Shown here: one piece after another, positions 211-16,559 of the stretch | How the letters are laid out: the number at the start of each line of letters is the position of its first letter | Position numbering within the stretch: the first letter of the stretch is position 1 | From: a virus | Lineage: Duplodnaviria; Heunggongvirae; Uroviricota; Caudoviricetes | Length of the DNA stretch: 19,926 nucleotides | Virus record (IMG/VR): IMGVR_UViG_2802428982_000005 | Span: 1 to 19,926 of that record | Strand: one strand, 5' to 3' | Translations under genes and position numbers: made by a program | The notes under the pieces: model-generated | What the model saw: only the letters and a program-made list of their open reading frames with translations | Told to the model about the DNA's origin: nothing | Database searches by the model: none

Positions 211-233
211 GGGTCTCCTTCCGTGGGTGTTGG

Positions 234-327: not shown

Positions 328-335
328 GCCTCCGT

Positions 336-1804: not shown

Positions 1805-2230
1805 TTACTTCTCCTCTTCTTGTTGGGTCCAAATGGCTGCAGCACGACGGAGTTCAGCCAGATTGTGTGGATTGGTGCGCAGCCCGAGCGCCTGAGTGGC
1901 GTGCTCGGCGACAGCGGCAAGTAGGTGGTGCAAGCGTCCGTCGCGGGCAGCCTCTTGCATTGGGGGTTCGAACACTGCCGGGTCGCCAGTGGCCCAGCCC
2001 GCCAGGAATGTGGTGGCTCGTCGGAGATCTCGAGGATGAGGGGTGTGGTCAGGGTCATCGACCGGCTGACCAATCGCCGTCAGGTACAGCGCACCTGTCA
2101 GTGCGGCCGGGCTGCCGGTCCACCGATCCTGCAAATCGCTCAGGGTCAGGCCCTCGCCTCGGCGGGCACGGGTGATGAACTCGTTGACGAGCTGAACGGC
2201 GCTATCGAATTCGGTCTCTGGGTTAGGCAT
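1805..2230 (-). CDS. Hypothetical protein (141 aa)
   Basis: Abuts the scaffold start (TAA-ATG). Overlaps the stop of the upstream gene by 8 bp. Confidence 0.75.
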   Translation of the reverse strand: MPNPETEFDSAVQLVNEFITRARRGEGLTLSDLQDRWTGSPAALTGALYLTAIGQPVDDPDHTPHPRDLRRATTFLAGWATGDPAVFEPPMQEAARDGRLHHLLAAVAEHATQALGLRTNPHNLAELRRAAAIWTQQEEEK

Positions 2231-2456
2231 CGAGTTCTTCCTTCAATCGTTGGTTTTCAACCGCGACGGTGATTGCGGCGGCAAGTTCTAGTGCTGCACC
2301 CTGGGTTAGGGTGATGCCATCGCCTACGTGGACGGCGGCGCCATCGACGGTGACGGCGGGTGGCGTCTGCGATCTGCACTGAAGACACTGCCGATCAGGA
2401 TGATGGGTGCGGCGCCTGCACAGCTTGCAGCGCCTGGCATAGCGACGGTGGGTCAT
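2223..2456 (-). CDS. Small Cys-rich (putative zinc-binding) protein, 77 aa
   Basis: ATGA overlap with the replication gene stop. CKLC...CLQC motif. The track start at 2618 is probably too long. Confidence 0.65.
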   Translation of the reverse strand: MTHRRYARRCKLCRRRTHHPDRQCLQCRSQTPPAVTVDGAAVHVGDGITLTQGAALELAAAITVAVENQRLKEELDA

Positions 2457-4000
2457 CCAGCTCTCCTGCGGTCGTAGTTGCGCTTTGCTATGGCTTCGCT
2501 GTGTACGACCACGGCAGCCGGTTCGGGCACGGCACGGGTCGGCACCGGGGCCTCGGGGACGCCGTCGCAGTCGTCGCAGAACTCCCCGGTAGATGCCGCT
2601 GGCAGGATGACTGAGCAACGTTTACACATCATCGACTTAACCTGCTTCTTGGTCAGTTTCGGCGTAGGCGGACTATCGGGGATGACAGTCATTGAACTGG
2701 ACTTTCCCTCTGGACTGTCACCCGCAGCAGGTACAGGGTGTACCTCAGGTACACGGTCTTTCACCTGCAAATTCTGCGGGTGTACCCCAGGTACAGGGTG
2801 TACCTCAGGGACCATCCGATACCGGGTGCCGCGATCAACCTCTATAGCCAGGACTCTGCCCTCATCGGCTAATTCGGCCAACGCTGCGCCGAGGTGATCA
2901 CGAAGATCGGCTTTGAGCTTTGATCGAATCTCATTGGTAGGCAGCTCGTTGGCTCTCGCCAGCCACCGAAGCACCGCATCCTTGGCCCGCTGTAGTTTGC
3001 GGTCTGAGACGATTTCCTCTCGGTCGGCAGTGGCGTGGGCGCGTGCTCGGTTGGCTGCCTGACCGATCTTCTGGGCCTCATTGAGCATCCACTCGCGGGT
3101 GGTGTTGGACATCGCCATCACCGACGCCGACAGCTGCCAGTCCAGTTCGGAGACCACCGACCGCTGGTGCAGGATGGCCAGCAGCGCAGCTACCTTGCAG
3201 CGGGTGAGCATGGCGTGGCCGTCGAGTGCATCGGCTTCTCCGCGCTGGCGTGCCAGGTGTGCCGAGATGATCGTCTGGCTGATCTCGGCGGGGCCGTAGG
3301 TGATCTCCACGGCGCCGTTGTCTGCCTTCCATGCGGGCAGCTTGGTGTTGAGCGGAGCCGGTTCTGTCGGGGCTTCGGCGGGCATGGTCGGGTCGGTGGT
3401 GGGCATCCACAGAATCCGTTGCGGGGTGCCGCCGGTGGTGTCGTTGAAGAGCACGCCGGTATGTCCGGGTTGGGCGCCGATGCTCAGTCCTAGCCGGTAC
3501 GTGTGGGGCTCGACTATGCGGGTCGTTGCCGCGCTGGCATTCGTCTGTCCCAGTAGCTCGCCCATCAGTGCCGCCTTGAGCGTGGCCAAGATGGTGGAGC
3601 CCTGACGTGATGCAGTGCCGGCCAGCTGGTCGATCTCGGGCACGGAGATCAGCGCCCGGGTGATGTGCTCGCGTTCCTCCTTTTCGCGGGGTTGGCGGAA
3701 CACCTCGGCGATACCCTCTCCGCTACCGAGAGGCCGCTCCAGGATCGGTGTCGGCCACGCGGCACGAGACACCTTGTCGGTGATGCCCTTACCGCCGCCG
3801 CTGGGTGAGCAGAACGCCACGGCCAGGTTCAGTGAGGCTTGCCCACCGATGAGGCCAGGGAGGCGAACCTCCGGTCCCGTCGATACCGACACCCGCAGCA
3901 GGACTCCACCGAGCACGCCCCACGGAGCCGCGTACCGGGCGCGCGCCCAGGTGTAGATGGTGTTCAACTCTTTGGTGGCGTCGAAGAATTCGTTCTTCAC
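2453..4000 (-). CDS. P-loop replication ATPase/helicase (DUF3987/YfjI-like) with winged-helix-like region and C-terminal Cys4 motif
   Basis: 515 aa. Walker A-like SPSGGGKG, Walker B-like LISVPEID, C-terminal CKRC...CDDC. GTG start with RBS AAGGAG. Occupies the rep position of PICI/phiRv elements. Confidence 0.7.
   Translation of the reverse strand: MKNEFFDATKELNTIYTWARARYAAPWGVLGGVLLRVSVSTGPEVRLPGLIGGQASLNLAVAFCSPSGGGKGITDKVSRAAWPTPILERPLGSGEGIAEVFRQPREKEEREHITRALISVPEIDQLAGTASRQGSTILATLKAALMGELLGQTNASAATTRIVEPHTYRLGLSIGAQPGHTGVLFNDTTGGTPQRILWMPTTDPTMPAEAPTEPAPLNTKLPAWKADNGAVEITYGPAEISQTIISAHLARQRGEADALDGHAMLTRCKVAALLAILHQRSVVSELDWQLSASVMAMSNTTREWMLNEAQKIGQAANRARAHATADREEIVSDRKLQRAKDAVLRWLARANELPTNEIRSKLKADLRDHLGAALAELADEGRVLAIEVDRGTRYRMVPEVHPVPGVHPQNLQVKDRVPEVHPVPAAGDSPEGKSSSMTVIPDSPPTPKLTKKQVKSMMCKRCSVILPAASTGEFCDDCDGVPEAPVPTRAVPEPAAVVVHSEAIAKRNYDRRRAG
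2728..2809. repeat. Iteron-like repeats within the replication gene (candidate origin)
   Basis: 22-bp CAGGTACAGGGTGTACCTCAGG at 2728-2749 and 2788-2809 (60 bp apart), plus GGGTGTACCCCAGGTACA at 2778-2795. Each 22-mer contains the palindrome AGGTACA-ggg-TGTACCT. Confidence 0.6.
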
Positions 4001-4314
4001 GCGATCTCCTTATTCATGGGTATGTACGCGTCACCGCGGCCGTTGCGTATCGCTGAGGCGATAGCGGACCAGTCGGCGGCACGAGAAATGTCTTGGGATG
4101 CTTGGGCTCGCGATGCCTGCTCGGTGTCCATCCGCAGGGCGTGGTGCCGTGCAGCGTCGAGTACGGCGGCGAGCTTGGCCGGATCGGTGGGGTCAAGTAG
4201 CTGCCAGGCGGGGGTGCCAGCTTGCGGCCAGCACCCCACCTCCTGCAGCAGCGGTTGCACGAACTCGTGTACCGCCCACCAATCAACTTGTTTCGAGGTG
4301 AAATCGTCCGTCAC
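3997..4314 (-). CDS. DUF2742-family protein (Rv2656c/Rv1583c-like phiRv protein)
   Basis: WWAVHEFV.P......WP.AGTPAW..L...DP.K.AA..DAARH.ALR..T.Q.....AS..IS.AADW closely matches recalled Rv2656c. GTGA overlaps at both ends. Confidence 0.85.
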   Translation of the reverse strand: MTDDFTSKQVDWWAVHEFVQPLLQEVGCWPQAGTPAWQLLDPTDPAKLAAVLDAARHHALRMDTEQASRAQASQDISRAADWSAIASAIRNGRGDAYIPMNKEIA

Positions 4315-4691
4315 GGCACCGCCTTGATGTCGGGCAGCACGATCTCCTTGAAGTACTTCGGCACCGCTGCCAGGGTTACCGCTGCGGCGTGTTCGTTGGC
4401 CCGCAGCAGTAGCTCCTCTAAGTCGTGTGCCTCGGTCAGCCGCATGTCGATCTGGGTATCGAGATCCCGTGGCCCGCCTTGGATGTGGATGATCACGCGC
4501 GGGGCGCCGTCACCTTCTCTTTCGTTGAAGTGCACCCCGGCACCGATCGACAGCGGCTTTTGGTCGTCATCGAGATTGAAGGGTGTCCCGTCGCCGAGGG
4601 TCGGTAAGACGTAGGTGATGCGCTGATGATCACCGCGGCAGTCCGGTGACCCGCCGGTGCACCACGTGAATCCTCTGGTGCAGCTGTTCAT
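4311..4691 (-). CDS. Hypothetical protein (126 aa) with Cys/His-containing N-terminus
   Basis: ATGA overlap at 4688-4691 and GTGA overlap at 4311-4314. Confidence 0.7.
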   Translation of the reverse strand: MNSCTRGFTWCTGGSPDCRGDHQRITYVLPTLGDGTPFNLDDDQKPLSIGAGVHFNEREGDGAPRVIIHIQGGPRDLDTQIDMRLTEAHDLEELLLRANEHAAAVTLAAVPKYFKEIVLPDIKAVP

Positions 4692-5020
4692 CGAGCACCA
4701 CCGATCCATAAGTCGGCCAGGTCGGCAGCATCCGTCAACGCCTTGGCAACAGCTCGGGCATCGGCAATTTCGTAGGCGGTATCCCAGAGGTACACCCGAG
4801 GCGCGAGGCCGGGGTTGTCGGTAACGACTGTTCCGTCCGGGCGCTGAGCAATTACTGCCTGAACATTGTGGTTGGCCAGACGCTCAGGCAAGGGCATCGT
4901 GTTCGACCAGACCAAGCGGGCGAATCCTGCGTCGCCCTGGTCCTCGAAATCGCGCTCGCTCATCTCGTCGTCGGCGCCCGCTGGCAATGGCACGTCGGTG
5001 GCGGTAGGTATAGTGTTCAT
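4688..5020 (-). CDS. Hypothetical protein (110 aa)
   Basis: RBS GAAAGGA upstream. Translationally coupled to the next gene. Confidence 0.75.
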   Translation of the reverse strand: MNTIPTATDVPLPAGADDEMSERDFEDQGDAGFARLVWSNTMPLPERLANHNVQAVIAQRPDGTVVTDNPGLAPRVYLWDTAYEIADARAVAKALTDAADLADLWIGGAR

Positions 5021-5181
5021 CAGAGATCGATTCCTTTCATGGGAATTGATTGGTTGCCCTCGACCTGGTGCTTGGCAGTGCTGGTCGGGGGCAGTTCTTT
5101 TTTCGGACGTAGATCCGGGGTTCGGTCGGCCTCTAAATCAAGGCCAAGGTCGCAGTGCTCGGCCTGCGGCAGTCGTCGCAT
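5020..5181 (-). CDS. Small hypothetical protein (53 aa)
   Basis: Not in the ORF track. MRRLPQAEH...MKGIDL starts immediately after the xis stop (TAA-ATG) and ends in a TGATG overlap with the next start. Confidence 0.45.
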   Translation of the reverse strand: MRRLPQAEHCDLGLDLEADRTPDLRPKKELPPTSTAKHQVEGNQSIPMKGIDL

Positions 5182-5346
5182 TTAGACCGCCTCCAATTTG
5201 GCGATGTATTCGGCCAGCTGGTCATCCGTCGAGAACCGACGGCGCCCGATAGTGACGCTGGCCAGTTCCTTTGATCGCCACAGACGGCGGACTGTGGACC
5301 TGCTTACGCCGCCGAGTGCGAGCTGTACGGCGGGGCAATCGTTCAT
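5182..5346 (-). CDS. xis: Excisionase / recombination directionality factor (winged HTH, AlpA/MerR-like), 54 aa
   Basis: Not in the ORF track. MNDCPAVQLALGGVSRSTVRRLWRSKELASVTIGRRRFSTDDQLAEYIAKLEAV, with RBS AGGAGG, is the first gene divergent from the repressor. Confidence 0.8.
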   Translation of the reverse strand: MNDCPAVQLALGGVSRSTVRRLWRSKELASVTIGRRRFSTDDQLAEYIAKLEAV

Positions 5347-5368
5347 CTTCCCTCCTGATTATTCCTGA

Positions 5369-5387
5369 CACGAAGAGAACCTTCGTG
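5369..5387. promoter_or_regulatory. Inverted repeat, candidate repressor operator between divergent xis and repressor
   Basis: CACGAAG-agaac-CTTCGTG perfect 7-bp inverted repeat. Confidence 0.5.
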
Positions 5388-5439
5388 AATCTTGCGTGAC
5401 ACGTAGGACATTACTCCAGTATTCGACAGACGCAAGGAT

Positions 5440-6069
5440 TTGACCGATACTCAGCGTGTGGAGAATCAACGAGACGACAGCTGGGCGTCCGAACTGGTTA
5501 AACGGGTGGGCAAGGCCATGAAGGAGGCGCGTGGCGGCAGATCGGCCACATGGCTCAGCGACAAGACAGCAGAGCTGGGCTACCGGATTCCCGCGACGGT
5601 TATATCCAAGCTCGACTCTGGATGGCGCGGCAGTGTCCTTAGCGTGCCAGAGCTCGTTGTGCTTGCCGCCGCACTAGACATGGCGCCCGTCGCGCTCCTG
5701 TACCCGACGCTCCCAGACGGGAAGGTGGAGCTTCTACCGGGGAAGCCTGCCCGCTCACTGGATGCAGTGGAGTGGTTTTGCGGACACACACCGCGGTCCG
5801 AGATTGATGATGCGGGCGACCTAGACCCAGTCCGTATGGACTCCGAAGTGGCCAACCTCCGACGACTGCGACATTCCCGCATCCGGGAATCCCTTCGGAA
5901 GACGCTTCGCACGGCGCTGAGTAGTGAGCAAATTTCTCAGGCGTTCGCCGATGCAGGAGAGGTTGACTCCAATCCGCAGGCGATCAGGGGAATGATTGAG
6001 ATCTACCAGGAGAGGCTGGAACGTATGGAGGCTGAAATAGCTGCTCGGGGATGGGATATCGATGCCTAG
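5440..6069 (+). CDS. XRE-family HTH repressor of the satellite
   Basis: N-terminal HTH (VGKAMKEAR...SATWLSDKTAELG..I..TVISKL.SG.R...LSV.ELVVLA.AL). Overlaps the integrase start by 8 bp. The exact start codon is uncertain. Confidence 0.8.
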   Translation: MTDTQRVENQRDDSWASELVKRVGKAMKEARGGRSATWLSDKTAELGYRIPATVISKLDSGWRGSVLSVPELVVLAAALDMAPVALLYPTLPDGKVELLPGKPARSLDAVEWFCGHTPRSEIDDAGDLDPVRMDSEVANLRRLRHSRIRESLRKTLRTALSSEQISQAFADAGEVDSNPQAIRGMIEIYQERLERMEAEIAARGWDIDA

Positions 6070-7225
6070 GGAACGACTACGGCCTGGCGAGCACGGCCGC
6101 ATCGCCGAACGGTCCTCTGCTGGCAAGTTTTTCGCCAGCACCTACGTTCGTGATTCGGATGGCAAGCGGCGGCGCGTGGAACGATCAAGCGAGAAGTCTG
6201 CCGAAGACGCGCGCCGTATCTTGCAGCGGCACTTGGTAAAACGTCGCCCGCCAAAAGCCGGTCAGGTGGTGAATGAAAAAACCGTCCTCGGCGACCTGTT
6301 CGACTTGTGGGTCGAAGCGAAGGCTGCCGAGGACGGCGTTAAGCAACAGACAGTTGATCAGTATCGGGCGGTGTGGAAGACGCACGGCGCCGCGCAGCTG
6401 GGCTCATTACGCGTCACCGAACTGGAGACCCAAGACGCCCACAACTACATCCAGGGCATGGCGTCCAAGAGTCAGGCCAAACGGCTACGGATGGTGCTGA
6501 CAGGCATGTACTCGATGGCATGTCGGTTCGACGTGATGCCCGTCAATCCGATGCGCGAAACGAAGACAGTCAGCACCGGCAGGAGAAAACCTCGCTCAGC
6601 CGACGCGACGGAGCTTAGGCAGATCCGTGCCGCCGTACGCGAGTACGCCGACCGGAAGGGTCCGGGGCCGCGCCCTGGTCGTCTGCTGCCTGCGTTCGTG
6701 GATCTCCTCGTCGCCACCGGGTGCCGACCCAACGAAGTGTTGGCCACCCGCTGGTGCGACGTAGACCTTCTCGCTGACCCGCCAACTCTCACCATCACCG
6801 GTACGTTGATCGACCACGGTCGTGTCGCCGGGGTGCCGCTGCATCGGCAGGACGAGCGCAAGGCGGATGCTCCCGACCATACCGTGATCTTGCCCAAGTT
6901 CGGTGTAGAGACGCTGACGGCGCTAATCGGGGAGTCAGGCATGGACGGCCCTGTGTTCGCCAACCGAGACGGCGGCTGGATGAGCCTAGCCAATCTACGG
7001 CGCGCCCTGCGCGCCGCGCTGCCGGAGGAACTAAGTTGGGTCACCCCCCACAGCTTCCGTCGCACGGTCGCCACGGTCATCCGCGACGAGCTCGGCTCGG
7101 ACAAGGCGCGGCAGCAGCTCTCCCACGCCAAGCTGGCGACCACCGAGGCTCACTACCTACAGCGCCAAACTCAAGGCCCGGATGCGCGCGGTGCGCTGGA
7201 ACAGTACTGGGAAAGTAGCGCCTGA
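6062..7225 (+). CDS. int: Tyrosine integrase with N-terminal arm-binding region
   Basis: Catalytic motifs TGCRPNE (R), HSFRR (HxxR), LSH and HY (Tyr). Adjacent to the att core. Confidence 0.95.
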   Translation: MPRERLRPGEHGRIAERSSAGKFFASTYVRDSDGKRRRVERSSEKSAEDARRILQRHLVKRRPPKAGQVVNEKTVLGDLFDLWVEAKAAEDGVKQQTVDQYRAVWKTHGAAQLGSLRVTELETQDAHNYIQGMASKSQAKRLRMVLTGMYSMACRFDVMPVNPMRETKTVSTGRRKPRSADATELRQIRAAVREYADRKGPGPRPGRLLPAFVDLLVATGCRPNEVLATRWCDVDLLADPPTLTITGTLIDHGRVAGVPLHRQDERKADAPDHTVILPKFGVETLTALIGESGMDGPVFANRDGGWMSLANLRRALRAALPEELSWVTPHSFRRTVATVIRDELGSDKARQQLSHAKLATTEAHYLQRQTQGPDARGALEQYWESSA

Positions 7226-7244
7226 AAGTAGCGGGAAAGTATCA
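7211..7244 (+). repeat. Integrase arm-type binding repeats
   Basis: GAAAGTAGCG at 7211 and 7224, GAAAGTATCA at 7235, about 50 bp from the att core. Confidence 0.6.
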
Positions 7245-7293
7245 GATGGTGGGCGTGTCGCCCAGGCGGATAATTACTGTATTGCCTGATAAA

Positions 7294-7330
7294 TGGTGCG
7301 CCCGAAGGGATTCGAACCCCTAACCTTCTG
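7294..7330 (-). other. att core: 3' fragment of a tRNA (most likely tRNA-Arg(ACG))
   Basis: The minus strand reads CAGAAGGTTAGGGGTTCGAATCCCTTCGGGCGCACCA (T-arm, acceptor 3' strand, CCA). This matches the recalled mycobacterial tRNA-Arg(ACG). The anticodon region degenerates (CTACTGA vs CTACGGA) and the 5' half is missing. Confidence 0.85.
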
Positions 7331-7560: not shown

Positions 7561-8565
7561 ATGACAACTACAAGGGGGACTGGACCGGCGCCGCTACCGG
7601 CGCCACCAGAATGGCAGGGGATAATCGCGAAGTACCGCACCGCTTTGGAGGCGGACGGTAGCCCGCGGACGACCATCGCGACACGCATGTCGCACCTTCA
7701 CCGATTAGCCCGCGGACTGGATGCGGCGCCCTATGAGGTAACCGAGGAAACGCTCATCGAGTGGTTTGCTAAGCAAAAACACTGGCAACGCGAAACTCGT
7801 CGCGGATACCGGACGACAACTCGGGGGTTTTTCGGCTGGGCGCATGCCAAGGGACACCTTTTGTCTAACCCAGCCGCCGGGCTGGAGGCCGTCTCGCCGG
7901 AGCCACCGGCACCTAAACCGGCACCAGATCGCGTGTGGAAAGAGTCGCTTCTGGCGGCCGACCCGCGCACCATGGTCATGCTGTACCTGGCCTGTGATGG
8001 CGGGTTACGACGCGGTGAAGTCGCCGCCGTGCACACAGACGACCTACTGGAGGGCATCGGGGGATACCTTCTGGTCGTTCATGGGAAGGGCGGCAAGGAT
8101 CGGACCATACCCATTTCCGATGACCTCGCGGACATGGTCGCGGCCGGGCCAGGTGGTCACACCCCGGGCCTAGGGTCGGGCGGGTATCTATTCCCTGGCG
8201 ACGACAACGGGCACCTGTCCCCGCGATGGGTCGGCAAGTTGTGTGCGAAGGCGATGCCGGGTGTGTGGACGATGCACAAGCTGCGCCACCGTTTCGCTAC
8301 ACGTGCATACCGGGGCACACGGGACATACGCGCCGTGCAGGAGTTGTTGGGCCACTCATCGGTTGCTACTACGCAGCTATACACCGCTGTGGATGACGAC
8401 GAAAAGCGGGCAGCCATGATGGCTGCCTCCTCTGGACCGCCCCCTCTAGCGAAGGCGGCAAGGTGGGCTGGCAGCGCAGTCGCAGGCGGCGCCGCTGCCG
8501 TCGCTGTTATTGCATCAACGGCATTACTATCTGATCAATTGCCCCCGTTATACCCCGGAAGTTAA
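7561..8565 (+). CDS. Tyrosine recombinase, Rv2646-like (no arm-binding domain), with hydrophobic C-terminal extension
   Basis: GLRRGE, HGKGGK, HKLRHRFAT, LLGH and QLYT motifs, with strong resemblance to recalled Rv2646. The ATG at 7561 is preferred over the track TTG at 7492. Confidence 0.9.
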   Translation: MTTTRGTGPAPLPAPPEWQGIIAKYRTALEADGSPRTTIATRMSHLHRLARGLDAAPYEVTEETLIEWFAKQKHWQRETRRGYRTTTRGFFGWAHAKGHLLSNPAAGLEAVSPEPPAPKPAPDRVWKESLLAADPRTMVMLYLACDGGLRRGEVAAVHTDDLLEGIGGYLLVVHGKGGKDRTIPISDDLADMVAAGPGGHTPGLGSGGYLFPGDDNGHLSPRWVGKLCAKAMPGVWTMHKLRHRFATRAYRGTRDIRAVQELLGHSSVATTQLYTAVDDDEKRAAMMAASSGPPPLAKAARWAGSAVAGGAAAVAVIASTALLSDQLPPLYPGS

Positions 8566-8590
8566 GCAGGCGCCGGTAGGGTTACGCCGC

Positions 8591-8887
8591 ATGCCTGCCC
8601 GCAAGTCACCTTGGCTAAACGCACGAGCAAACCTGCTCATCCAGACGCTAGCCGAGCAATACGGGCTGACCATCAGCGAGAGCACTGCCCGCGAGGACGT
8701 CTCCGCGCATGTGGATTTCGTTGCCGAGCGCATGCGGATTCAGCGGCGCGCGGCGAAGGCGTACGTCACCGAGGACGTTATCCACGGGTTAGCGGAGCAC
8801 ATCGCGAAATGCGTCAGGGAAGCGCTCGACGCTGCACCGGAGGGTGCAGCGGAACCGCCGAGACTCCGGGTCGTCGACCCTGAATAG
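8591..8887 (+). CDS. Hypothetical protein (98 aa)
   Basis: MPARKSPWLNARANLLIQTL...LRVVDPE. Follows the recombinase and ends at a strong hairpin. Start chosen at ATG 8591. Confidence 0.7.
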   Translation: MPARKSPWLNARANLLIQTLAEQYGLTISESTAREDVSAHVDFVAERMRIQRRAAKAYVTEDVIHGLAEHIAKCVREALDAAPEGAAEPPRLRVVDPE

Positions 8888-8924
8888 AAGGAGGGCCACC
8901 CATCCCCTCGGGTGGCCCTCCTTC
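8887..8924. terminator. Hairpin between convergent genes (probably bidirectional terminator)
   Basis: Perfect 15-bp stem GAAGGAGGGCCACCC / GGGTGGCCCTCCTTC with an 8-nt loop. Confidence 0.8.
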
Positions 8925-8935
8925 CCCTACAGCAG

Positions 8936-10120
8936 TCAGCGACCGGCGGCCACGAGCATGGCGTCCACACCGGTCGCCGCGAATTCGTTGGAGCGGTCGA
9001 CGTCGGCAATCAGCTGGGCGTACGACGTGACGGCCTGCATGACGCCGCCCGCGGTCATCTGGCCACCTTTGATGAAGTGGTCCAGGATTCCGCGCTGTTC
9101 GTCCTGGCTGTAGGACAGCTTCTTGGCCACGACCTCGATCACGTCGGCTGGGGCGGTGAGCGGGGTGCCGCTGGTCTCCTCCAGCTTCTCAATAGCGGTC
9201 TTCACGTAGTCGACGTTCATGAAGGAGGCTACGGCGTCGCGGACCTGCTTCTTGATCAGGTCGTTGGCGGCGTCGATGGTGTCTGCCGACCAGTTCACCT
9301 TGCCGTCGTCCAGCTTCTTGCCGAGGTGGATCTTGCGCATGGCGTCGGCGTTGATGGTGAGGCCGTTGTCGCAGATCCTGATACGCAGCTCTGGGGTGAT
9401 GGTGAGTGCGCCGCCGCCGGTCTCGCTGTTGGTGACCAGCATTCCGGCGTAGACGACGGGCAGGGTGTTGGCGGCTTCGCCGCCGTGTGCTGTGCCTGCC
9501 CAGGGTGAGCGGTAGCCCTCCAGCAGCTTGGGTGCAACGACCTCCAGCTCCGGTGCGGTCACCCGCAGGTACAGCCGCTCGTCGGACAAGTCGGCGCCGC
9601 GGATGTGCTGGGCGCCGAGACCGGCCGCGCGCATCCCATCGAGCAGTGCGAGCACGGTGTCGAGGTTGTCGCGGATGCCGTACCGGTCTGACAGCACGGC
9701 GCGGACGATGCCGTGGGTGCCGGGGTACATGGGGTCGCTGCCCGACAGCATGCGGACGAGGACCTTCTTGGCAGGGTCGTGCACCCGGGCCAGTTCGTTG
9801 ACGTTGGTGTCCATCAGTTCCAGGTGCTGCGCGCGCAGCTTGCGGACATAGCGGGTGGGGATGTCGAGGACGTCGCCGAGCTGGCTGTCGGAGCGGTCGG
9901 TCATCCGGTAGGTCCCGTTGAAGTCGGTGACGCCTTCGTCGTTGATGTCGGGCGCCTGGTCCGAGATGACCAGGTTGCCGCTGGTGAACCGGACGTCGGA
10001 GACGGGCATGACTACGTCTACCTTCTGCCGGTGCTGCTGCTCCAGCAGCGTGATGAGGTTTCCGATGTTGGCGTTGCGCAGGGTGCGGGCGGGTATTGCG
10101 GGCAGTGTTGGTGCGGTCAT
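8936..10120 (-). CDS. DUF932-like mobile-element protein (394 aa)
   Basis: RAVLSDRY..RDN, NSETGGGAL.ITP...RICDNGL and RKIHLG motifs resemble DUF932 family proteins. ATG 10120 with RBS AGGAGG. The track start at 10228 crosses a terminator. Confidence 0.75.
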   Translation of the reverse strand: MTAPTLPAIPARTLRNANIGNLITLLEQQHRQKVDVVMPVSDVRFTSGNLVISDQAPDINDEGVTDFNGTYRMTDRSDSQLGDVLDIPTRYVRKLRAQHLELMDTNVNELARVHDPAKKVLVRMLSGSDPMYPGTHGIVRAVLSDRYGIRDNLDTVLALLDGMRAAGLGAQHIRGADLSDERLYLRVTAPELEVVAPKLLEGYRSPWAGTAHGGEAANTLPVVYAGMLVTNSETGGGALTITPELRIRICDNGLTINADAMRKIHLGKKLDDGKVNWSADTIDAANDLIKKQVRDAVASFMNVDYVKTAIEKLEETSGTPLTAPADVIEVVAKKLSYSQDEQRGILDHFIKGGQMTAGGVMQAVTSYAQLIADVDRSNEFAATGVDAMLVAAGR

Positions 10121-10159
10121 GATTTCCTCCTGATTGATGTTTGCTTGACCGATAGCTCG

Positions 10160-10192
10160 AATGTATAGCGCACTATACGTTCTAGGCAAGCG
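10160..10192 (-). promoter_or_regulatory. Promoter with palindromic operator copy 1 (DUF932-like gene)
   Basis: GTATAGCGCACTATAC at 10163-10178. The minus strand reads TTGCCT-N18-TACATT with the palindrome between and overlapping these elements. Confidence 0.75.
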
Positions 10193-10200
10193 TGAGCATG

Positions 10201-10241
10201 AAGAAAAAGAAATCACCCCCGCCCACATGGGACGGGGGTGA
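10201..10241 (-). terminator. Intrinsic terminator after the 105-aa gene
   Basis: Stem TCACCCCCG/CGGGGGTGA extended by CCC/GGG, followed on the minus strand by TTTCTTTTTCTT. Confidence 0.8.
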
Positions 10242-10258
10242 GAAGTAACCAGGAGGAT

Positions 10259-10576
10259 TCAGTCGGCAACCGCGGGAATCACGCGGGGCCAGAAGTGGAT
10301 ACGGCCCTGGCGATGACAAGGCCCGAGGGATTCGATGGCCCTACGGATCGCGTCGACGTCGCCACCTCCCTGCCGGGCCGCCACTACCACCGCGACCTCG
10401 TATCCGAACTCGACGACACGGTCGCCGCGGTAGGCCAGGCACGGCGGCAGGTGACCCCGGCCGACCCAGTCGAATGCCGGACGTACGTCCGAGTGCGGTT
10501 CGTGAACAAGCATGGAGCGGCTGACTGCATCCAGCTCGTCCGCGGTCAGCGTGATTGCAGTGCTTGCAATTGACAT
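10259..10576 (-). CDS. Hypothetical protein (105 aa)
   Basis: ATG 10576 with AGGGAAGG upstream. Has its own promoter/operator upstream and terminator downstream. Confidence 0.7.
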   Translation of the reverse strand: MSIASTAITLTADELDAVSRSMLVHEPHSDVRPAFDWVGRGHLPPCLAYRGDRVVEFGYEVAVVVAARQGGGDVDAIRRAIESLGPCHRQGRIHFWPRVIPAVAD

Positions 10577-10615
10577 GGTGGGACCTTCCCTAGTGTTCGC
10601 TGGCAATCCTGCTTG

Positions 10616-10645
10616 AACGTATAGCGTGCTATACGTTGTGTCGAG
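10616..10645 (-). promoter_or_regulatory. Promoter with palindromic operator copy 2 (105-aa gene)
   Basis: AACGTATAGC-GT-GCTATACGTT (10616-10637), a 10-bp perfect inverted repeat. The minus strand reads TCGACA-N17-TACGTT. Confidence 0.75.
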
Positions 10646-10698
10646 AGGTTTATCGTCAACGCCCCCTTATCGCGGCTACCCCGGTTTAAAGTTCGGCC

Positions 10699-11148
10699 AT
10701 GAGAATTAGGTGGGGGCTGTACATGGCGGTTGCAGCGGCCGTGACAGCGGGGTGCAGCGGTGGGACGGTGCAGGAAGCGACGGCCACCGTGCCGCAGAAG
10801 CCAGTGATACTGCCCCAGGCGGCCGTCGACATGAGTGGATGGAAGGCCGAAATCATGGCCTCCAGCCCGGAGGCATCACCCGACATGGCGCGCCTGTACG
10901 AGCTGACCGTGGCCGACTGCGACAAGACCGTCGACGAATTCGAGTCGATGATTGCCGCCGACACCGACGGCACCATGGCCATCGTCCGGCGCGGGATGCG
11001 CTACGTGTGCCCAACCCGCCTAGAAAGGGTTAACCAGGCCCAGTCCAACAACAACCGCGGCGGCCGGGAGGTAGACCGGGCTTGCGCAACGGCACCAACA
11101 CAACGGACCGACAGACAGCGCGAGCTAGCCGACGCTACGGGCTGCTGA
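10699..11148 (+). CDS. Putative lipoprotein (DUF732-like C...YxCP motif)
   Basis: Signal peptide with lipobox TAGC (Cys19) and four further Cys residues. Confidence 0.75.
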   Translation: MRIRWGLYMAVAAAVTAGCSGGTVQEATATVPQKPVILPQAAVDMSGWKAEIMASSPEASPDMARLYELTVADCDKTVDEFESMIAADTDGTMAIVRRGMRYVCPTRLERVNQAQSNNNRGGREVDRACATAPTQRTDRQRELADATGC

Positions 11149-11153
11149 ACGCT

Positions 11154-11579
11154 CTACGCCGAACCACCCTCGGGCCATCCATTTGGGGTTCGCTGCCATT
11201 TTCCACCCTCGCACATCAGTAGAGCCAACTCTCGTTTCCGCTGAGCCCCTTCAGGTGTTGGGACGTAGGTGAGTCCCGGTACACCCTCTTGCGGGCATGA
11301 TGATCCGACACCGTTATCGGCGACTCTTATGGCCCACCAACGGCCCAACTCAGGCTTGTCATGACTTCGTTGTCGACACTCAAGCTCCAGACCCGAGGCG
11401 TCTTGCGCACGCCATTCATTGGACGGGCATTCGGTACCAGCTGCACGTATGGGTCGACCATATGCGCCTGTGGAAGTGGTGGGTACCGTCGGCTCGGACG
11501 ATGGCCTGTTGCACCCACTTACTGCGAGTAGTGTCACGAGTATCGTTGTTGCGAAACGTAATTGCTGTACTGTTACCAT
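11154..11579 (-). CDS. Putative lipoprotein; candidate immunity protein of the upstream effector
   Basis: Lipobox VSGC (Cys23), two G..C...L.C...W repeats. The start overlaps the last 7 bp of the effector gene. Confidence 0.75.
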   Translation of the reverse strand: MVTVQQLRFATTILVTLLAVSGCNRPSSEPTVPTTSTGAYGRPIRAAGTECPSNEWRAQDASGLELECRQRSHDKPELGRWWAIRVADNGVGSSCPQEGVPGLTYVPTPEGAQRKRELALLMCEGGKWQRTPNGWPEGGSA

Positions 11580-13819
11580 TTGCGATGCGCCTGATTGGTT
11601 CCGAGCGACTCCTGGGTGATCCAGTGATCCGTATCGAAGTTGTGTCGTTCTAAGGCCGCCTTCAAAGCAGTTTCAGCAGAAGGGTCCGCCCCAATTTTGA
11701 ACGGATCTAGTTGTCCGCCAGTGATGTAGCTAGCCAAGCCGTTGTCATTCGCAATGCTAGGGTCCGATTGGATGAGCCCGTCAAGAATGGCCCGATAGCT
11801 GTCGAGGGCGCTGAAACCGTACGGACCAGTGGTGACCATCTTGTTGGCGACATCCGCGGGGTTACTACTATTGCCTTGGAGTGCTTGGTCGATGGCTTCA
11901 ATCGGGTTGAGCACCTTGTCGATACCAAGTTGGCCAGTGATCCAGTCACCGAGCTTCTTGGTAGCTGGCTCATCCTCCTTGGTGTTGAGGGCGTCCATCG
12001 CGCCGTCAAGCATACCCTGTTGGATCTGACCGCCCACTTTGAATTCATGATCTCGCATTGCTCGGTGTTCTGGTGTATCGGTGGGCATTTGGGCGGCCTC
12101 GGACAGGTTGTGCGTGTATTCCTGGTAGGCGCCGCCGTTGATGATCTTGGCGGCGTCCTCGTTGCGGTCCAGGTTGGCCATCAGGTTCTTGGCTTGATCA
12201 GCGTTGTCGAATGCCTTGATCCCTGGGGCATCCGGATTGTCGGCACCGAACAGCTCGGCGACGTGTGAACCTTCAAGCCGCGCCGTAGTTTTGGCCAGTT
12301 CGGGGTTGGCCTCGGCCCACGAATCCCCAGTGAAATGCTGGCCCGGTCCCGGCAGGTCCCGCAAAGCATCCTGATGCCCTGGATCAGCCAGGTAGTGGGC
12401 CTGCTCGTTGGCGACCTGCTGCGCCAGCGGGTTGTTGGGGTCGTCGGCGGCCCATTCCAGGACATCATCGACCTTGGCGCCTTGATCGCCCCAGTGCTGT
12501 TCATTGAGCGCCCGCAAGAACGAGTCCGCACCCGGTGAAGCACTTTCGGGCTCGCGGGCCATTTCGGCGATGTCCACGTGATCGGCGCTGCCAGCCTGAA
12601 ACATATCGGCCACCGCAGACTTGAAATCACCGCGCGCATCGGTGGTGATGCCGCTGGTGAAGTCCTTCAAATCGTTGTTGTGGGTGTTGATCTCGGCATT
12701 GGAGTAGTCCGAGGCTGCGCCGAGCATCGCCTGGGCGGCCTCCGAGCCGTTCAGGTATCCGGGGGTGACGCCCTGGAAAATGTTGGCGACATCCTGCATA
12801 TCGGCGACACCGCGTAGCTCGGTCTGTGGCCCGCCGTACCCGCGCGCGGCGTTGTCGAACGAGACTCCCACCCGGTCGGCGCGAGTGAGTGCTTCGCGCA
12901 CCCCATCGGGCAGGTTCGCCACGCTGCCAGCGGTGGGGATGAAGTTGCCTCGGCTGGCTTCGGTGACCCCGGCCTTGTTGTCGATCCCCGAGCGAATGTT
13001 TTTGTTGGACACCATCGCCAGCGCGTCCTTGACTGCCGTGCGGTCCTGCGGGTTCTGTATCCCGTTGAGGAACGCATTGACCTCGCCGGGTGTCTTGCCG
13101 TCCAACGACCGGGACAGCTGGTACAGGTACTGCATCTGGTTGGACGGGATGGTTACCGGCTTGCCAGCGGCCAACGCGTCAACCTGCTCGGGTGAAAGGA
13201 CGCTGGCGGCCCGCACCCGTTTGATCAGCTCAGGATCGACATAGCCGCCTTGCAGCGCCGAGCCGTCCTCGTTACCGCGCGCGGCATCCAGACCGCCCAC
13301 CGGGGCCAGCAGGGTATCTAGGTCCATCGCGTCGGTCTGGCTGGCCGCTTCCAGGTCGGCAGCACCCCACGCGTCATACATCCGTTGTAGCCGCGCCTGA
13401 ATATTGGCGGCGTACTCCGCACCTTTGGCGACCTGTTCCTTGGACGCACCCGGTGGAGCGTCCCATTCCACAGTCAGGTCATCGGCAATTTTGTAGTGGT
13501 CGCCGGTCGCCTGGTCGTGCAGGCTGATACAGGCGTTCTGCTGCTCCAGCGCCCGCGATAGCGAGTCAATGACGTTGGGGGCGCCGTTGAGGATGGCTTG
13601 CCCGGCACCGAGAAACACCTTCTCATCGCTGCTGGCGGTCTCGCGTGCCGCATCGGATGCGGCGCCGTCCCAGTACTGGCCACCGGGACGCTCCACCGCT
13701 GTCTTGTAGTCCGCGCCCGTCTGCTGAATCTCGACCCCGGCCACCATCGCCTGACGCATCAGCTCGATATTGGCCTTCGTCGGCGTCGAGAGCAGCAGTT
13801 GATACGACCGCGCGGACAT
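11573..13819 (-). CDS. Putative type VII (ESX)-secreted polymorphic effector with N-terminal WXG100-like domain
   Basis: 748 aa with a helical N-terminus carrying a WDG motif near residue 50. TGATG-coupled to the upstream small WXG-like gene and followed by a coupled lipoprotein. The C-terminal domain is not recognised. Confidence 0.75.
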   Translation of the reverse strand: MSARSYQLLLSTPTKANIELMRQAMVAGVEIQQTGADYKTAVERPGGQYWDGAASDAARETASSDEKVFLGAGQAILNGAPNVIDSLSRALEQQNACISLHDQATGDHYKIADDLTVEWDAPPGASKEQVAKGAEYAANIQARLQRMYDAWGAADLEAASQTDAMDLDTLLAPVGGLDAARGNEDGSALQGGYVDPELIKRVRAASVLSPEQVDALAAGKPVTIPSNQMQYLYQLSRSLDGKTPGEVNAFLNGIQNPQDRTAVKDALAMVSNKNIRSGIDNKAGVTEASRGNFIPTAGSVANLPDGVREALTRADRVGVSFDNAARGYGGPQTELRGVADMQDVANIFQGVTPGYLNGSEAAQAMLGAASDYSNAEINTHNNDLKDFTSGITTDARGDFKSAVADMFQAGSADHVDIAEMAREPESASPGADSFLRALNEQHWGDQGAKVDDVLEWAADDPNNPLAQQVANEQAHYLADPGHQDALRDLPGPGQHFTGDSWAEANPELAKTTARLEGSHVAELFGADNPDAPGIKAFDNADQAKNLMANLDRNEDAAKIINGGAYQEYTHNLSEAAQMPTDTPEHRAMRDHEFKVGGQIQQGMLDGAMDALNTKEDEPATKKLGDWITGQLGIDKVLNPIEAIDQALQGNSSNPADVANKMVTTGPYGFSALDSYRAILDGLIQSDPSIANDNGLASYITGGQLDPFKIGADPSAETALKAALERHNFDTDHWITQESLGTNQAHRKW

Positions 13820-14148
13820 CAGCGATCACCCATCGGTACGTCACGGGTCAGCGCCAACCCTGCTGCCGACCGGATGGTCTGAGTGATGTGCTCCTCGGTG
13901 TCCCCGAACTGGGTCACCGTCTGCGCGGACAGGTCAGCCACGGTGTTCAGGCGTGCGGCCAAACTCCGCTGCATGTTCGGGATGGACTTGCTCACCAGCT
14001 TGCTGATAGCCACCGTCGCCGGGGAACGACCAGACTCACCGCCAGGGTGGCTACTGGCGGCCTTCGTCAGCCTGGTCGCCAACCCCTGTAAATCCGGCGA
14101 CAGCTTGCCCAGCGCCTCCAGATCAATTTTGAGTTTGTCGTCGGACAT
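13819..14148 (-). CDS. Small ESX-secretion-associated helical (WXG100/EspC-like) partner protein
   Basis: 109 aa, LKIDLEALGKL N-terminus, helix-turn-helix hairpin composition and C-terminal FxxxE (FGDTE), resembling the YxxxD/E type VII signal. Confidence 0.72.
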   Translation of the reverse strand: MSDDKLKIDLEALGKLSPDLQGLATRLTKAASSHPGGESGRSPATVAISKLVSKSIPNMQRSLAARLNTVADLSAQTVTQFGDTEEHITQTIRSAAGLALTRDVPMGDR

Positions 14149-14188
14149 TGGCCCCGCCCTAATCGGAAGTACTCCGCTATGTCATTGG

Positions 14189-14209
14189 GTGCACGGTAAC
14201 ACCGTGCAC
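14189..14209. repeat. 9-bp perfect inverted repeat between HTH gene and WXG-like gene
   Basis: GTGCACGGT-aac-ACCGTGCAC. Confidence 0.7.
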
Positions 14210-14232
14210 TGTGGACGTCAGCAGAAGGACAG

Positions 14233-14454
14233 CTAATCGTTGGAAGTCTGGCAAATCTTGTATATGCCGTCGCGTGTCACTTCGGCATCGCGCGCCAGTG
14301 CCGTTGCACCGACGCCCAGGTCCCGGGCTGCCTTTATCGCCGCGTAAAACTCGGCATCGAGGCGCTTGCGCGTGGTCTCGTGGCGGTGACGGCGACGTGC
14401 CAGACGTCGGACAGCCAACCGGGCTGCCTCCTGCGCATCCGACGTTGCACCCAT
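14233..14454 (-). CDS. Small HTH DNA-binding protein (73 aa), probable autorepressor, probably leaderless
   Basis: C-terminal HTH-like segment AIKAARDLGVGATALARDAEVTRDGIYKI. -10 hexamer TATACT lies 6 nt before the ATG, with no RBS. Confidence 0.78.
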   Translation of the reverse strand: MGATSDAQEAARLAVRRLARRRHRHETTRKRLDAEFYAAIKAARDLGVGATALARDAEVTRDGIYKICQTSND

Positions 14455-14460
14455 GGCCGC

Positions 14461-14477
14461 AGTATAGCGCGCTATAC
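14461..14477 (-). promoter_or_regulatory. Palindromic operator copy 3 overlapping the -10 of the HTH gene
   Basis: Perfect 16-bp palindrome GTATAGCGCGCTATAC at 14462-14477. The minus-strand TATACT is 14461-14466. Confidence 0.8.
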
Positions 14478-14505
14478 ACGAGTGGAGGCAACCGGCTGGT
14501 ACGGG

Positions 14506-14534
14506 AAAACGCCCCGGCCCGAAGGCCGGGGCGT
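14506..14534 (-). terminator. Intrinsic terminator ending the late tail/lysis transcript
   Basis: 11-bp perfect stem ACGCCCCGGCC/GGCCGGGGCGT, C(UUCG)G loop on the minus strand, followed by a short T run. Confidence 0.85.
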
Positions 14535-14554
14535 CCTCCAGCTATCGCGTGGGC

Positions 14555-14965
14555 CTAGGGGCGGCGGTCCTCCAGATCAGTCACCCGGTCGTACAGGGCG
14601 GTGTGTCTGCGGTTCTGCTCGCGAACGTCGCCGTGCAGGCCGCCAACTTCCTTGCGCAGGTCGGACATCTCCTCGCGGATACCGCGCAGGTCACGCATGG
14701 CATCGGCGAATCTGTCGACCAGATACTCGACGCCGCGGACTGCGCGGTCGACGTCGTCGCGCAGGTTGGTCTCGTGCGAGTTCACTACCTGCTCCTCCAC
14801 TCCTGCCAACTTCGCCTCGACCGCGTCGACGCTCTTGTTGACGGCGGTCACGTGCTTGCGGCTGGAGAAGTGCGAGGTGATGTATGCGGTGCCCCAGCCG
14901 CCGACGGCCGCTATGGTCAGGGCGGCTAGGTCCATCCAGGAATCAGCGCCCACTCCCCCGCTCAC
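14555..14965 (-). CDS. DUF2746-like lysis-cassette protein (one TM helix plus coiled coil)
   Basis: N-terminal TM segment and VVNSHETNLRDDVD motif, directly after the holin with a GTGA overlap. Confidence 0.8.
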   Translation of the reverse strand: MSGGVGADSWMDLAALTIAAVGGWGTAYITSHFSSRKHVTAVNKSVDAVEAKLAGVEEQVVNSHETNLRDDVDRAVRGVEYLVDRFADAMRDLRGIREEMSDLRKEVGGLHGDVREQNRRHTALYDRVTDLEDRRP

Positions 14966-15339
14966 TCAGCCGGGCCGCTCGTCGGGGCGATGCTGGGCGT
15001 GGTGTTGGTGTTGGCCGCCGCGAGCCCACCGCCCAACAGGATTGGGATGAGCGCAAGCCATGGCGCGATCTGGTCCTGGGTGAAGATGCCCCACCCGATG
15101 AGGAGGGTGGCACCGGCGCCGAGGACGGGGTACACCCAGCGCCGGAAGCCATCGGCGGTGTTGATGTGCGACAGGGTCGAGTCGAACACCGCAAGCAGCA
15201 GTGCCGCAACGAGGTTCGCTTTGGTGGCCGTCAGAATCCCCATGGTGACCAGGAAGACGGCCAACCCGGGTATTGCGGTGTGTATGAAGGCGCGGAGATC
15301 ACTCCACGTCTTGATGCCCAACAGTGAGGTGTCCTTCAT
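14962..15339 (-). CDS. Holin (multi-pass membrane protein)
   Basis: 125 aa with about four hydrophobic segments, immediately after lysin B. Confidence 0.8.
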   Translation of the reverse strand: MKDTSLLGIKTWSDLRAFIHTAIPGLAVFLVTMGILTATKANLVAALLLAVFDSTLSHINTADGFRRWVYPVLGAGATLLIGWGIFTQDQIAPWLALIPILLGGGLAAANTNTTPSIAPTSGPAE

Positions 15340-15392
15340 GTCAAATCCCTTTCAACAGTTGCATTTACACAGTTGCTGGACAGGCCCGCCGA

Positions 15393-16559
15393 TTAGGCGG
15401 GAGTTTGGAGTTGGGCAGCGACGTCGAATTGGAATAGCTGGTCCCAGTTGGACCAGGTGCCCGGGAGTAGGACGAGGGTGCAGCCTTTCGGGGCCACGCG
15501 GCGGATGTTGGCGGCGGCGTGGTCGACGGCAGTCATGCCGTCCCACAACGCATATGCCGGGTCGCCGTACTTTCCGTGTGCGTTGGTGGCGATGAACTTG
15601 ATGGCGTCGAACAGTAGGTACACCAGGTCCGGTAGCAGGGACAGCAGCTGCACGGGGTTGAGCAGCTGACCGATGGTCCCTGCCGGGCCGGTCGTCATGA
15701 GTCCGGCGAGGCCGGACAGCGCGCCGTGCAGGGGGTCGTCACTTGGGGCGAGGCCGAGTAGTTCCTGGAATGCCTGTTGTGGGAACTTTGTGAACAGGTA
15801 GATAGCGAAGTCCAGGGTCAGCTCGGCGCGGGTGAGGACCTGGTACAGCAGGAACAGCAGGCCGCGGGCACGTGGGTACCAGTCGCCGTCGATGGAGTAC
15901 GACCAGTAGCGGTCCTGTACCCATTGTGGTTGCGGCAGTTTGGAGATGCCCTCGCCGGGGTCGTTGCCCAGCAGGCTTCCCTCGGCGGGCATGGATGGGT
16001 CTCCGAAGGTGGTGACGCCGAGCACGAACTGGCGCCACTCCGGCGGCAGCGCAGTGAGGCACTTCTGCACGGAGACGCCGCCCATGGAGTAGCCGAGGAG
16101 CCAGATGTTGGTGCCCGCCATGGGCCGGTACAGGCGCATGAACTCGTCACGGAACTGGTCGGTGGCCTTGTTGAAGCTGTGCGCGTCGGGTGGGTTGAGG
16201 AAGGCCCGCGAGTCTGCCCAGACTCCCTGGATCGGGTACTTGGACCGGTAGACCGGCGCGACGTAGGCGCCGATGGCCTTTCGTACCGCCAGGTTCGCGA
16301 CGCCGTCGTCGCGGAGGGGCGTGGTGATACCCAGGCGGCGCAACCGCTCTACTTCGACAGGGTCGTTGTTCATGAAGCGGGTGATGTCCTGCACGGCCGC
16401 CGCGGTGCCGTCCGTGTAGCGGTCGTCGAGCATCACGCCGTGCTCCGCTGCGTGGCTGTTCTTCGGGTAGGCGCGCAGGAGTCGTCGCTCGATGTTGGCT
16501 ACCTCTGGGCTGACGTCGCCGGGGCCGTACCCGATCCACTTGCCGTCGGGGCCGTTCAC
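15393..16559 (-). CDS. lysB: Lysin B (mycolylarabinogalactan esterase), with N-terminal peptidoglycan-binding-like domain
   Basis: GYSMG nucleophile elbow, FGDP, DGDWY and AHGKY (Ser-Asp-His). Coupled to lysA by a GTGA overlap. Confidence 0.88.
   Translation of the reverse strand: MNGPDGKWIGYGPGDVSPEVANIERRLLRAYPKNSHAAEHGVMLDDRYTDGTAAAVQDITRFMNNDPVEVERLRRLGITTPLRDDGVANLAVRKAIGAYVAPVYRSKYPIQGVWADSRAFLNPPDAHSFNKATDQFRDEFMRLYRPMAGTNIWLLGYSMGGVSVQKCLTALPPEWRQFVLGVTTFGDPSMPAEGSLLGNDPGEGISKLPQPQWVQDRYWSYSIDGDWYPRARGLLFLLYQVLTRAELTLDFAIYLFTKFPQQAFQELLGLAPSDDPLHGALSGLAGLMTTGPAGTIGQLLNPVQLLSLLPDLVYLLFDAIKFIATNAHGKYGDPAYALWDGMTAVDHAAANIRRVAPKGCTLVLLPGTWSNWDQLFQFDVAAQLQTPA

Follow-up and report, generated by a model that had tools for sequence, protein, structure and literature searches.

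The window examined here is a 19,926-nucleotide (nt) stretch of viral DNA, IMG/VR record IMGVR_UViG_2802428982_000005, in which a 16-bp palindrome, GTATAG-N4-CTATAC, recurs in front of several genes, one of them coding for a 73-aa helix-turn-helix (HTH) protein. The window covers the integrase/lysis end of a cluster MabK-type Mycobacterium abscessus prophage: this region shows 93% nucleotide identity to the corresponding part of Mycobacterium phage prophiT37-1 and is matched in part by prophiGD43A-5, two M. abscessus prophages that belong to cluster MabK (PMC8092301, PMC9934374). A 37-bp attachment (att) core at 7294-7330 is repeated at 82534-82570 of the 83.9-kb provirus record, to which all positions called "provirus" below refer; with the core at both prophage ends, the prophage measures about 75 kb. 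Positions 1-7293 of the window lie outside this prophage.

The minus strand carries, in order, the genes for lysin A, lysin B and holin, a 136-aa gene, a terminator and the 73-aa HTH gene (14233-14454), followed on the same strand by genes for a 109-aa WXG/EspC-like protein, a 748-aa EspA-like (TPR_23) effector and a 141-aa protein. Next along come a plus-strand lipoprotein gene, a 105-aa gene, a second terminator and a 394-aa gene, beyond which lies the integrase gene on the plus strand.

Palindromic sites within predicted promoters

Three exact copies of the palindrome occur in the window, against none in 200 dinucleotide-preserving shuffles: O1 (10163-10178, GTATAG-CGCA-CTATAC) in the predicted promoter P1, O2 (10619-10634, GTATAG-CGTG-CTATAC) between the divergent 105-aa and lipoprotein genes, and O3 (14462-14477, GTATAG-CGCG-CTATAC) on the HTH gene's own promoter. 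The initial annotation had described these three sites, and both their coordinates and their symmetry are confirmed. It had added that the window had no other copy, and none was found there at up to 3 mismatches. The provirus, however, has further exact copies at 54195 and 57701 and a one-mismatch copy at 57653; scanning it at two mismatches gave no additional ones. The whole-prophage total is accordingly six, half of them in the window, and what had been presented as a regulon of three units involves six promoters in the provirus, as it does in prophiT37-1 and prophiGD43A-5 with six syntenic copies apiece. When the sites were compared with an extended consensus of 22 bp, AACGTATAG-N4-CTATACGTT, scored over 18 positions, O2 proved the best match to the extended palindrome (18/18), closely followed by O1 (17/18), while O3 reached 12-13/18. 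The HTH-proximal site is the poorest in every genome examined, and the other sites score 14-18.

All promoters were called by eye, applying the mycobacterial TANNNT rule. P1 (10160-10189, minus strand) has a -35 element TTGCCT (10184-10189), an 18-nt spacer and a -10 element TACATT (10160-10165), with an AGGAGG ribosome site and the ATG at 10120 downstream. In P2 (10616-10644, minus strand) a -35 element TCGACA (10639-10644) is separated by 17 nt from TACGTT (10616-10621), and the ATG stands at 10576. P3 (14454-14491, minus strand) is a predicted leaderless promoter with TTGCCT (14486-14491), a 19-nt spacer, TATACT (14461-14466) and just 6 nt from the -10 element to the ATG at 14454. The same plan recurs at all six sites of the prophage: the TANNNT box (TACATT, TACGTT, TACAGT or TATACT) is built from the last bases of the palindrome, a -35-like hexamer (TTGCCT, TCGACA, TTGTTC or TTGCTT) ends 4-5 nt 5' of it (8 nt at P3), and the distance from -35 to -10 is 17-19 nt. 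Four of the six have the ATG 6-7 nt past the TANNNT box, a leaderless arrangement; P1 and P2 are the two with leaders and ribosome sites. The earlier description of each copy as overlapping the -10 region of a leftward sigma-A-like promoter agrees with the presence of a TANNNT box at each downstream edge. Likewise, the terminators that it had placed ahead of the promoters correspond to strong hairpins 5' of P1 and P3. One of these, at 10213-10241 on the minus strand (12-bp stem, -25 kcal/mol, z -4.7, U-rich tail), ends the 105-aa unit just 5' of P1; the other, at 14506-14540 on the same strand (-37 kcal/mol, z -5.1, UUUU), belongs to the lysis-side gene, lies directly 5' of P3 and is kept in all four aligned lineages. 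Measured on the predicted promoters, the six sites span about -28 to -9, over the spacer and the -10 box, and this arrangement supports the view that the palindromes, which look like operators, are embedded in SigA-type promoter cores.

The sites are selectively conserved among related prophages. Beyond the two published genomes, five IMG/VR proviruses have 4-6 copies each, and ten more assemblies keep three mid-genome copies, which is all that their 20-kb loci cover; peptide patterns found IMG/VR relatives at two loci. Every multi-copy locus among the high-GC IMG/VR loci examined belongs to this prophage family. O1 is kept in prophiT37-1, prophiGD43A-5, the IMG/VR relatives and a divergent lineage (L105), in which the HTH protein is 59-62% identical, the 105-aa homologue 70% identical and the holin a member of a different family. 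In that lineage the three window-type sites have exact half-sites, and the sequence from terminator to palindrome has drifted. In a set of 53 distinct site contexts drawn from about 25 related prophage loci, only the two hexamers hold information: the N4 centre shows 15 variants, the flanks are nearly information-free, and the upstream hexamer, which falls within the spacer, is as invariant as the -10-proximal one. Spacer sequence is unconstrained in SigA promoters. The mirror-symmetric invariance of a hexamer located there, combined with a free centre, is therefore best explained by a symmetric dimeric protein that recognises the site.

This pattern bears directly on the proposal that the sites are read by some other phage protein, for instance gp55 of prophiT37-1, or by an activator, or that the palindrome is mainly part of a shared promoter cassette. 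An invariant spacer hexamer next to a free N4 centre speaks for a symmetric protein site and not a promoter alone; moreover, repressors typically act from sites that cover the spacer and -10 box, and activation of the MerR type needs a MerR-family protein, of which there was none among the proteins scanned. Even so, gp55 (246 aa, encoded in the block of the fourth promoter, P4) has an N terminus that matches DNA-binding PHROGs, the toxin cassette is reported to be expressed in lysogens (PMC8092301), so that at least some of these promoters are active there, and the P4 promoter-operator cassette can be found ahead of a different gene. The last point comes from the IMG/VR provirus G409 (locus L237, 5584 and 8871-8900), which is without the 1.16 kb that hold the toxin-antitoxin pair and both divergent promoters; there the fourth promoter-operator cassette precedes a different leaderless gene, from which it appears that the cassette is portable. 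On balance, we regard this group of explanations as quite unlikely.

The immunity switch of the prophage uses a different sequence. No copy of GTATAG-N4-CTATAC is present in the repressor-excise intergenic region (provirus about 82.1-82.25 kb); the corresponding region of locus L239 (1600-1740) has three GCAAGTG-type repeats, two of them forming a 13-nt inverted pair, which are probably the immunity operators. The suggestion that the circuit is separate from the main immunity repressor is thus upheld.

Candidate binders of the palindrome

The interpretation that we tentatively prefer, while according it somewhat less than an even chance, is that the palindrome serves as operator for a repressor that is phage-encoded, dimeric and independent of the immunity repressor, the most likely binder being the 73-aa HTH protein. 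A dimer sitting on the site would obstruct RNA polymerase over the spacer and -10 box of six SigA-type promoters, each of which would start a separate cargo unit. The 73-aa protein would presumably dimerise through its N-terminal helix, which is followed by a putative three-helix HTH of the resolvase type, and it would limit its own synthesis loosely via O3 while holding O1, O2 and the three sites outside the window more tightly. We infer repression rather than activation, given that repressors classically occupy sites covering the spacer and -10 box; the identity of the binder, its dimerisation and the graded affinities are likewise proposed by us, and the occurrence of the weakest site at the HTH promoter suits a loosely autoregulated repressor.

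Several features of the 73-aa protein (14233-14454, minus strand), which matches the phage HTH family phrog_686 (E 2e-6), are in keeping with such a role. Its AlphaFold2 model (pLDDT 84) consists of a long N-terminal helix and three short helices, and residues ~29-70 superpose on the HTH domains of resolvase, IstA and ParB with root-mean-square deviations of 0.7-1.5 A over 31-36 residues, at Foldseek E-values that all exceed 2 for the Protein Data Bank (PDB). Whole-fold matches in the AlphaFold database are small uncharacterised actinobacterial HTH proteins (TM 0.75-0.88, E 0.02-0.3). Alleles at 92, 65 and 59-62% identity retain the HTH helices, and the putative recognition-helix residues R61, D62, I64, Y65, K66 and I67 are invariant across them. 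In each of the three alleles (A, B and C) the gene's own leaderless promoter has an operator copy, placed 7 nt 5' of the ATG. In prophiGD43A-5, where the toxin cassette is inverted, the gene stands alone yet keeps its operator copy. The family is a rare one, with 3 matches among 1.84 billion representative proteins, and is distributed as narrowly as the motif; by contrast, prophiFSAT01-1, which has the toxin cassette as well, lacks the motif and carries an unrelated 73-aa gene in the HTH position. A word-based homologue search recovered the protein's own clusters only, a Pfam search at E up to 1 gave DUF5983 alone (E 0.13), NCBIfam had no match for either this protein or the second small HTH protein described below, and the gene is annotated as "hypothetical protein" in both prophiT37-1 and prophiGD43A-5. 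Hence, of the earlier idea of a small HTH autorepressor, a plausible HTH protein with an operator-like site on its own promoter stands, and it is the best candidate for the binder.

A number of observations weigh against the 73-aa protein, or against the promoter arrangement in which it is thought to act. The Foldseek comparison with the PDB yielded no significant match, and a scan for E. coli-type consensus promoters over 8500-15500 reported none. RNA contigs, assembled from four libraries of one 2021 study, from which no starts, ends, strands or levels can be read, reach 14506 and thereby extend past the predicted leaderless start by 52 nt in the upstream direction. Joint occurrence of motif and HTH gene in related prophages, which the initial annotation had suggested looking for, is indeed found in the MabK relatives, but all of these represent a single phage lineage, and it is hence weak evidence. 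In addition, the Rhodococcus genomes with a tandem arrangement of the 16-mer, discussed below, have no homologue of the 73-aa protein. Finally, there is a second small HTH gene, coding for a 76-aa protein (provirus 54358-54585; prophiT37-1 gp49), that lies directly behind the Ro60 gene in the unit of the sixth promoter; it is part of the regulon itself, its stop codon abuts operator O4, and all complete relatives that were checked have it.

This second gene provides the basis for a rival assignment, namely that the 76-aa protein is the binder and the 73-aa gene merely one more of its targets. Although not homologous to the 73-aa protein, the 76-aa protein has the same build, with an N-terminal helix and a C-terminal HTH (HTH_31, E 9e-4). 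Its homologues (54-68% identity, always behind Ro) are, however, encoded in the genomes of Sparky, Farewell, BearBQ and Cashline, which are without the motif even at 2 mismatches. A more natural target for it, should it bind DNA, would be an everted palindrome upstream of Ro, though this argument is an indirect one. We therefore consider the 76-aa protein an unlikely reader of the six sites. The everted sequence, CTATAC-CGCG-GTATAG, immediately precedes the Y-RNA array and the Ro gene at provirus 57233-57248 (7234-7249 of locus L005), the site of L233 and L236 being at 2952-2967, and equivalent everted sites are CTGTAC-TGCG-GTACAG in Sparky and Farewell and TGTAA-TGCG-TTACA in two Gordonia phages. 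It may be the target of the Ro-linked 76-aa HTH protein or a Y RNA stem.

A different possibility is that a regulator of the M. abscessus host reads the sites, in which case the cargo promoters of the prophage would use an operator taken over from the host. Genomes of the host's family, sampled in three sets of 400, came no closer to the host than a best identity of 72-75%; the 16-mer was present in 25 of 401 sampled genomes. In Rhodococcus the palindrome occurs in tandem, as two abutting copies (L229 4994-5025, L231 4976-5007, L232 4984-5015), upstream of a conserved operon that encodes a 136-160-aa membrane protein and a 63-65-aa XRE-type HTH protein; judged from their arrangement, these tandem sites look like a host autoregulatory operator, and the motif would thus serve cellular regulators in the order. 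As the 16-mer here stands beside an unrelated XRE regulator, its sequence alone does not point to the 73-aa protein. A motif in genomes that lack the HTH gene, which the initial annotation would have taken as pointing to a host regulator, is thus seen in a weak form in Rhodococcus, but at a different locus and in a different genus. The provirus has no homologue of the Rhodococcus XRE protein, the presence of several copies per locus is confined to this prophage family among the viral loci surveyed, and one copy sits on the phage HTH gene's promoter in every lineage, as autoregulation predicts. A pattern scan of species genomes gave chance matches, with none from Mycobacteroides among the matches listed. 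We accordingly hold a host regulator to be very unlikely. Two genomes (G046 and G332; L243-L247) stood out for having 32-33 copies of the 16-mer each, but these are cores of an extragenic palindrome and unrelated to the circuit. The element in question is a perfect palindrome of ~44 bp with the core GTATAG-CGGG-CTATAC, and it looks similar to repetitive extragenic palindromic (REP) sequences.

Two other kinds of protein were considered as binders and set aside. The BrnA-type antitoxin has no recognisable DNA-binding domain. HTH genes on the integrase side are unlikely candidates, in that they differ between prophiT37-1 (196 aa), prophiGD43A-5 (TetR-like, 98 aa) and the window, while the motif is constant.

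Comparison with known regulatory systems

Aca-type autorepressors are small HTH proteins encoded in anti-CRISPR operons, which bind an inverted repeat over the -10/-35 region and by this feedback give an early burst of expression followed by shut-down. The 73-aa HTH gene resembles them in its size and in having an inverted repeat on its own promoter. Unlike the Aca genes, it has no anti-CRISPR or recognised anti-defence neighbour, its downstream genes forming an ESX cassette, and in prophiGD43A-5 it stands by itself; further, its product is without an XRE-type Pfam match, and the operator is common to six scattered promoters instead of belonging to one operon. Another parallel is offered by KorA/TrfB (PF16509) of IncP plasmids, a small dimeric HTH repressor that acts on one palindrome over the -10 region of several promoters, including its own. 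Here too a single palindrome covers the -10 region at several promoters, that of the candidate repressor among them, within a mobile element, but the 73-aa protein has no PF16509 match at E up to 1, and the element is a phage and not a plasmid. The label KORA is seen solely on a minority of members in two clusters that resemble the 73-aa protein, with scores of 0.89-0.90. The lambda-type repressors CI and Cro bind as HTH dimers to 16-17-bp dyad operators that overlap promoters and are clustered at the lysis-lysogeny switch. The palindrome described here is similarly a 16-bp dyad overlapping promoter elements; in contrast, its copies are single, dispersed and placed ahead of cargo genes.

Dispersed sites are well known from the stoperators of cluster A (L5 gp71) and MabJ phages, which are asymmetric, 13-14 bp long and orientation-dependent, occur in 14-30 copies and are sites of the immunity repressor (PMC9934374). 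The present system shares with them the existence of many dispersed sites for one putative mycobacteriophage-encoded protein, and differs in that its six sites are symmetric, lie in promoter cores and are absent from the immunity switch. With the published MabK prophages this one has in common the gene order and the swappable ESX toxin-immunity cassette (PMC8092301, PMC9934374). Term searches of these published descriptions found no palindrome, operator or shared promoters for MabK. The prophage group and its toxin cassette have already been published, and the proposed switch is of an ordinary kind but undescribed for this phage group.

Taken further, the sites could belong to a cargo master switch of MabK prophages, i.e. 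a second, immunity-independent regulator that would co-ordinate all lysogenic-conversion modules (ESX-secreted toxin, toxin-antitoxin pair, Ro/Y-RNA genes and several unknown genes) via a portable, mostly leaderless promoter-operator cassette, inserted ahead of every cargo gene as it is acquired. In this scenario, which we deem possible but are inclined to doubt, the weakest of the sites would have been assigned on purpose to the regulator itself, and the everted site at Ro may be read by the second small HTH protein. ESX toxins, toxin-antitoxin pairs and other genes of M. abscessus prophages are believed to influence how fit and how virulent this hard-to-treat pathogen is. If such a switch exists, one gene deletion or titration of the operator should switch the whole cargo set, and the immediate control of swapped-in cassettes would be explained. 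The principle of a dimeric repressor acting on a palindrome within a promoter is a textbook one, and the value of the case is specific to the phage group and not conceptual. What is added here is the footprint in a divergent lineage, the weakest site at the HTH gene's own promoter, the motif-free phages with a Ro-linked HTH gene and, as a caution, the Rhodococcus operator.

Gene content of the promoter-associated units

P1 heads the unit of the 394-aa gene (8936-10120, minus strand; phrog_1362, PHROG E 3e-97), which had been called DUF932-like. Its product has no Pfam match at E up to 1. The name draws solely on a likeness in protein language-model features, with an Atlas score of 0.97 to clusters in which PF06067 is found in 16-30% of members, and may be taken as a lead only. 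The 105-aa gene (10259-10576, minus strand), which forms the unit of P2, is conserved at 70-99% in relatives, and its product has no Pfam, PHROG, NCBIfam or PADLOC match. Divergent from P2 is the lipoprotein gene (10699-11148, plus strand, 149 aa), with its signal and lipobox read from the sequence. It has a leaderless-type arrangement of its own at 10687-10701 (TAAAGT, 6 nt, ATG) and may be independent of the palindrome, which lies 65 nt upstream, making its control by O2 uncertain. In prophiGD43A-5 the toxin cassette follows the lipoprotein gene in the same direction.

The 73-aa HTH gene had been viewed as a unit of its own, a description that does not fit this prophage, in which an ESX cassette follows in the same direction and an RNA contig bridges the two. 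The cassette starts with the 109-aa WXG/EspC-like partner (13819-14148, minus strand; phrog_18870, E 1e-28; PF10824 below threshold, E 0.008), continues with the 748-aa EspA-like type VII secretion substrate (11573-13819, minus strand; PF23275 TPR_23, E 2e-47), an effector of the polymorphic-toxin type with no toxin domain identified in its C terminus, and ends with the 141-aa gene (11154-11579, minus strand), which occupies the immunity position by position only. The 141-aa and lipoprotein products have no Pfam, NCBIfam or PADLOC match. This layout of small partner, large substrate and immunity-position gene matches the prophage ESX polymorphic toxin-immunity cassette (PMC8092301), and the corresponding cassette is annotated as such in prophiT37-1. 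Between the HTH and WXG genes lies a hairpin or palindrome (14185-14205, minus strand; z -2.6) with 9-bp arms, GTGCACGGT-N3-ACCGTGCAC, that is without a U tract and is degenerate in the divergent L105 lineage; an attenuator, a processing site or another operator are candidate roles for it.

Dedrick et al. reported that lysogens transcribe the toxin-immunity loci, that of prophiGD43A-5 among them, although the majority of prophage genes are silent (PMC8092301). The RNA contigs introduced above bridge 14506-11889 and 11180-10733 of the window: one contig runs through the HTH and WXG genes into the effector gene, most of which it covers, and the lipoprotein gene is covered beyond a replaced segment. 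The bridging contig is compatible with transcription from P3 into the cassette, and P3 probably does read on into these genes in this prophage. The lysis genes, the 105-aa gene and the 394-aa gene in its 5' half have only short contigs of low depth, which are not readable as silence.

The three sites beyond the window face further cargo. The copy at provirus 57701 precedes a BrnT-like toxin-antitoxin pair, and the divergent copy at 57653 faces a gene for a small secreted protein, the Y-RNA array, the Ro60 gene and the 76-aa HTH gene; tRNA and Rfam scans of this Ro region were empty. The copy at 54195 precedes a block of unknown genes. The possibility raised earlier of an anti-defence module finds no support among the genes of the window, and PADLOC gave no match for any unit gene; the identifiable cargo consists of the secreted-toxin cassette, the toxin-antitoxin pair and the Ro/Y-RNA genes. 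The Acb2_Tad1_hairpin domain of Pfam represents the fold of sponge proteins that act against CBASS and Thoeris. A gene outside the window, at provirus 45619-46008 on the minus strand, has a product that shares 94-97% identity with proteins from relatives in which this domain is present. It lies ~8 kb downstream of the fourth promoter and in the same orientation; any link to that promoter would be putative, and the gene is the sole hint of anti-defence cargo in the prophage.

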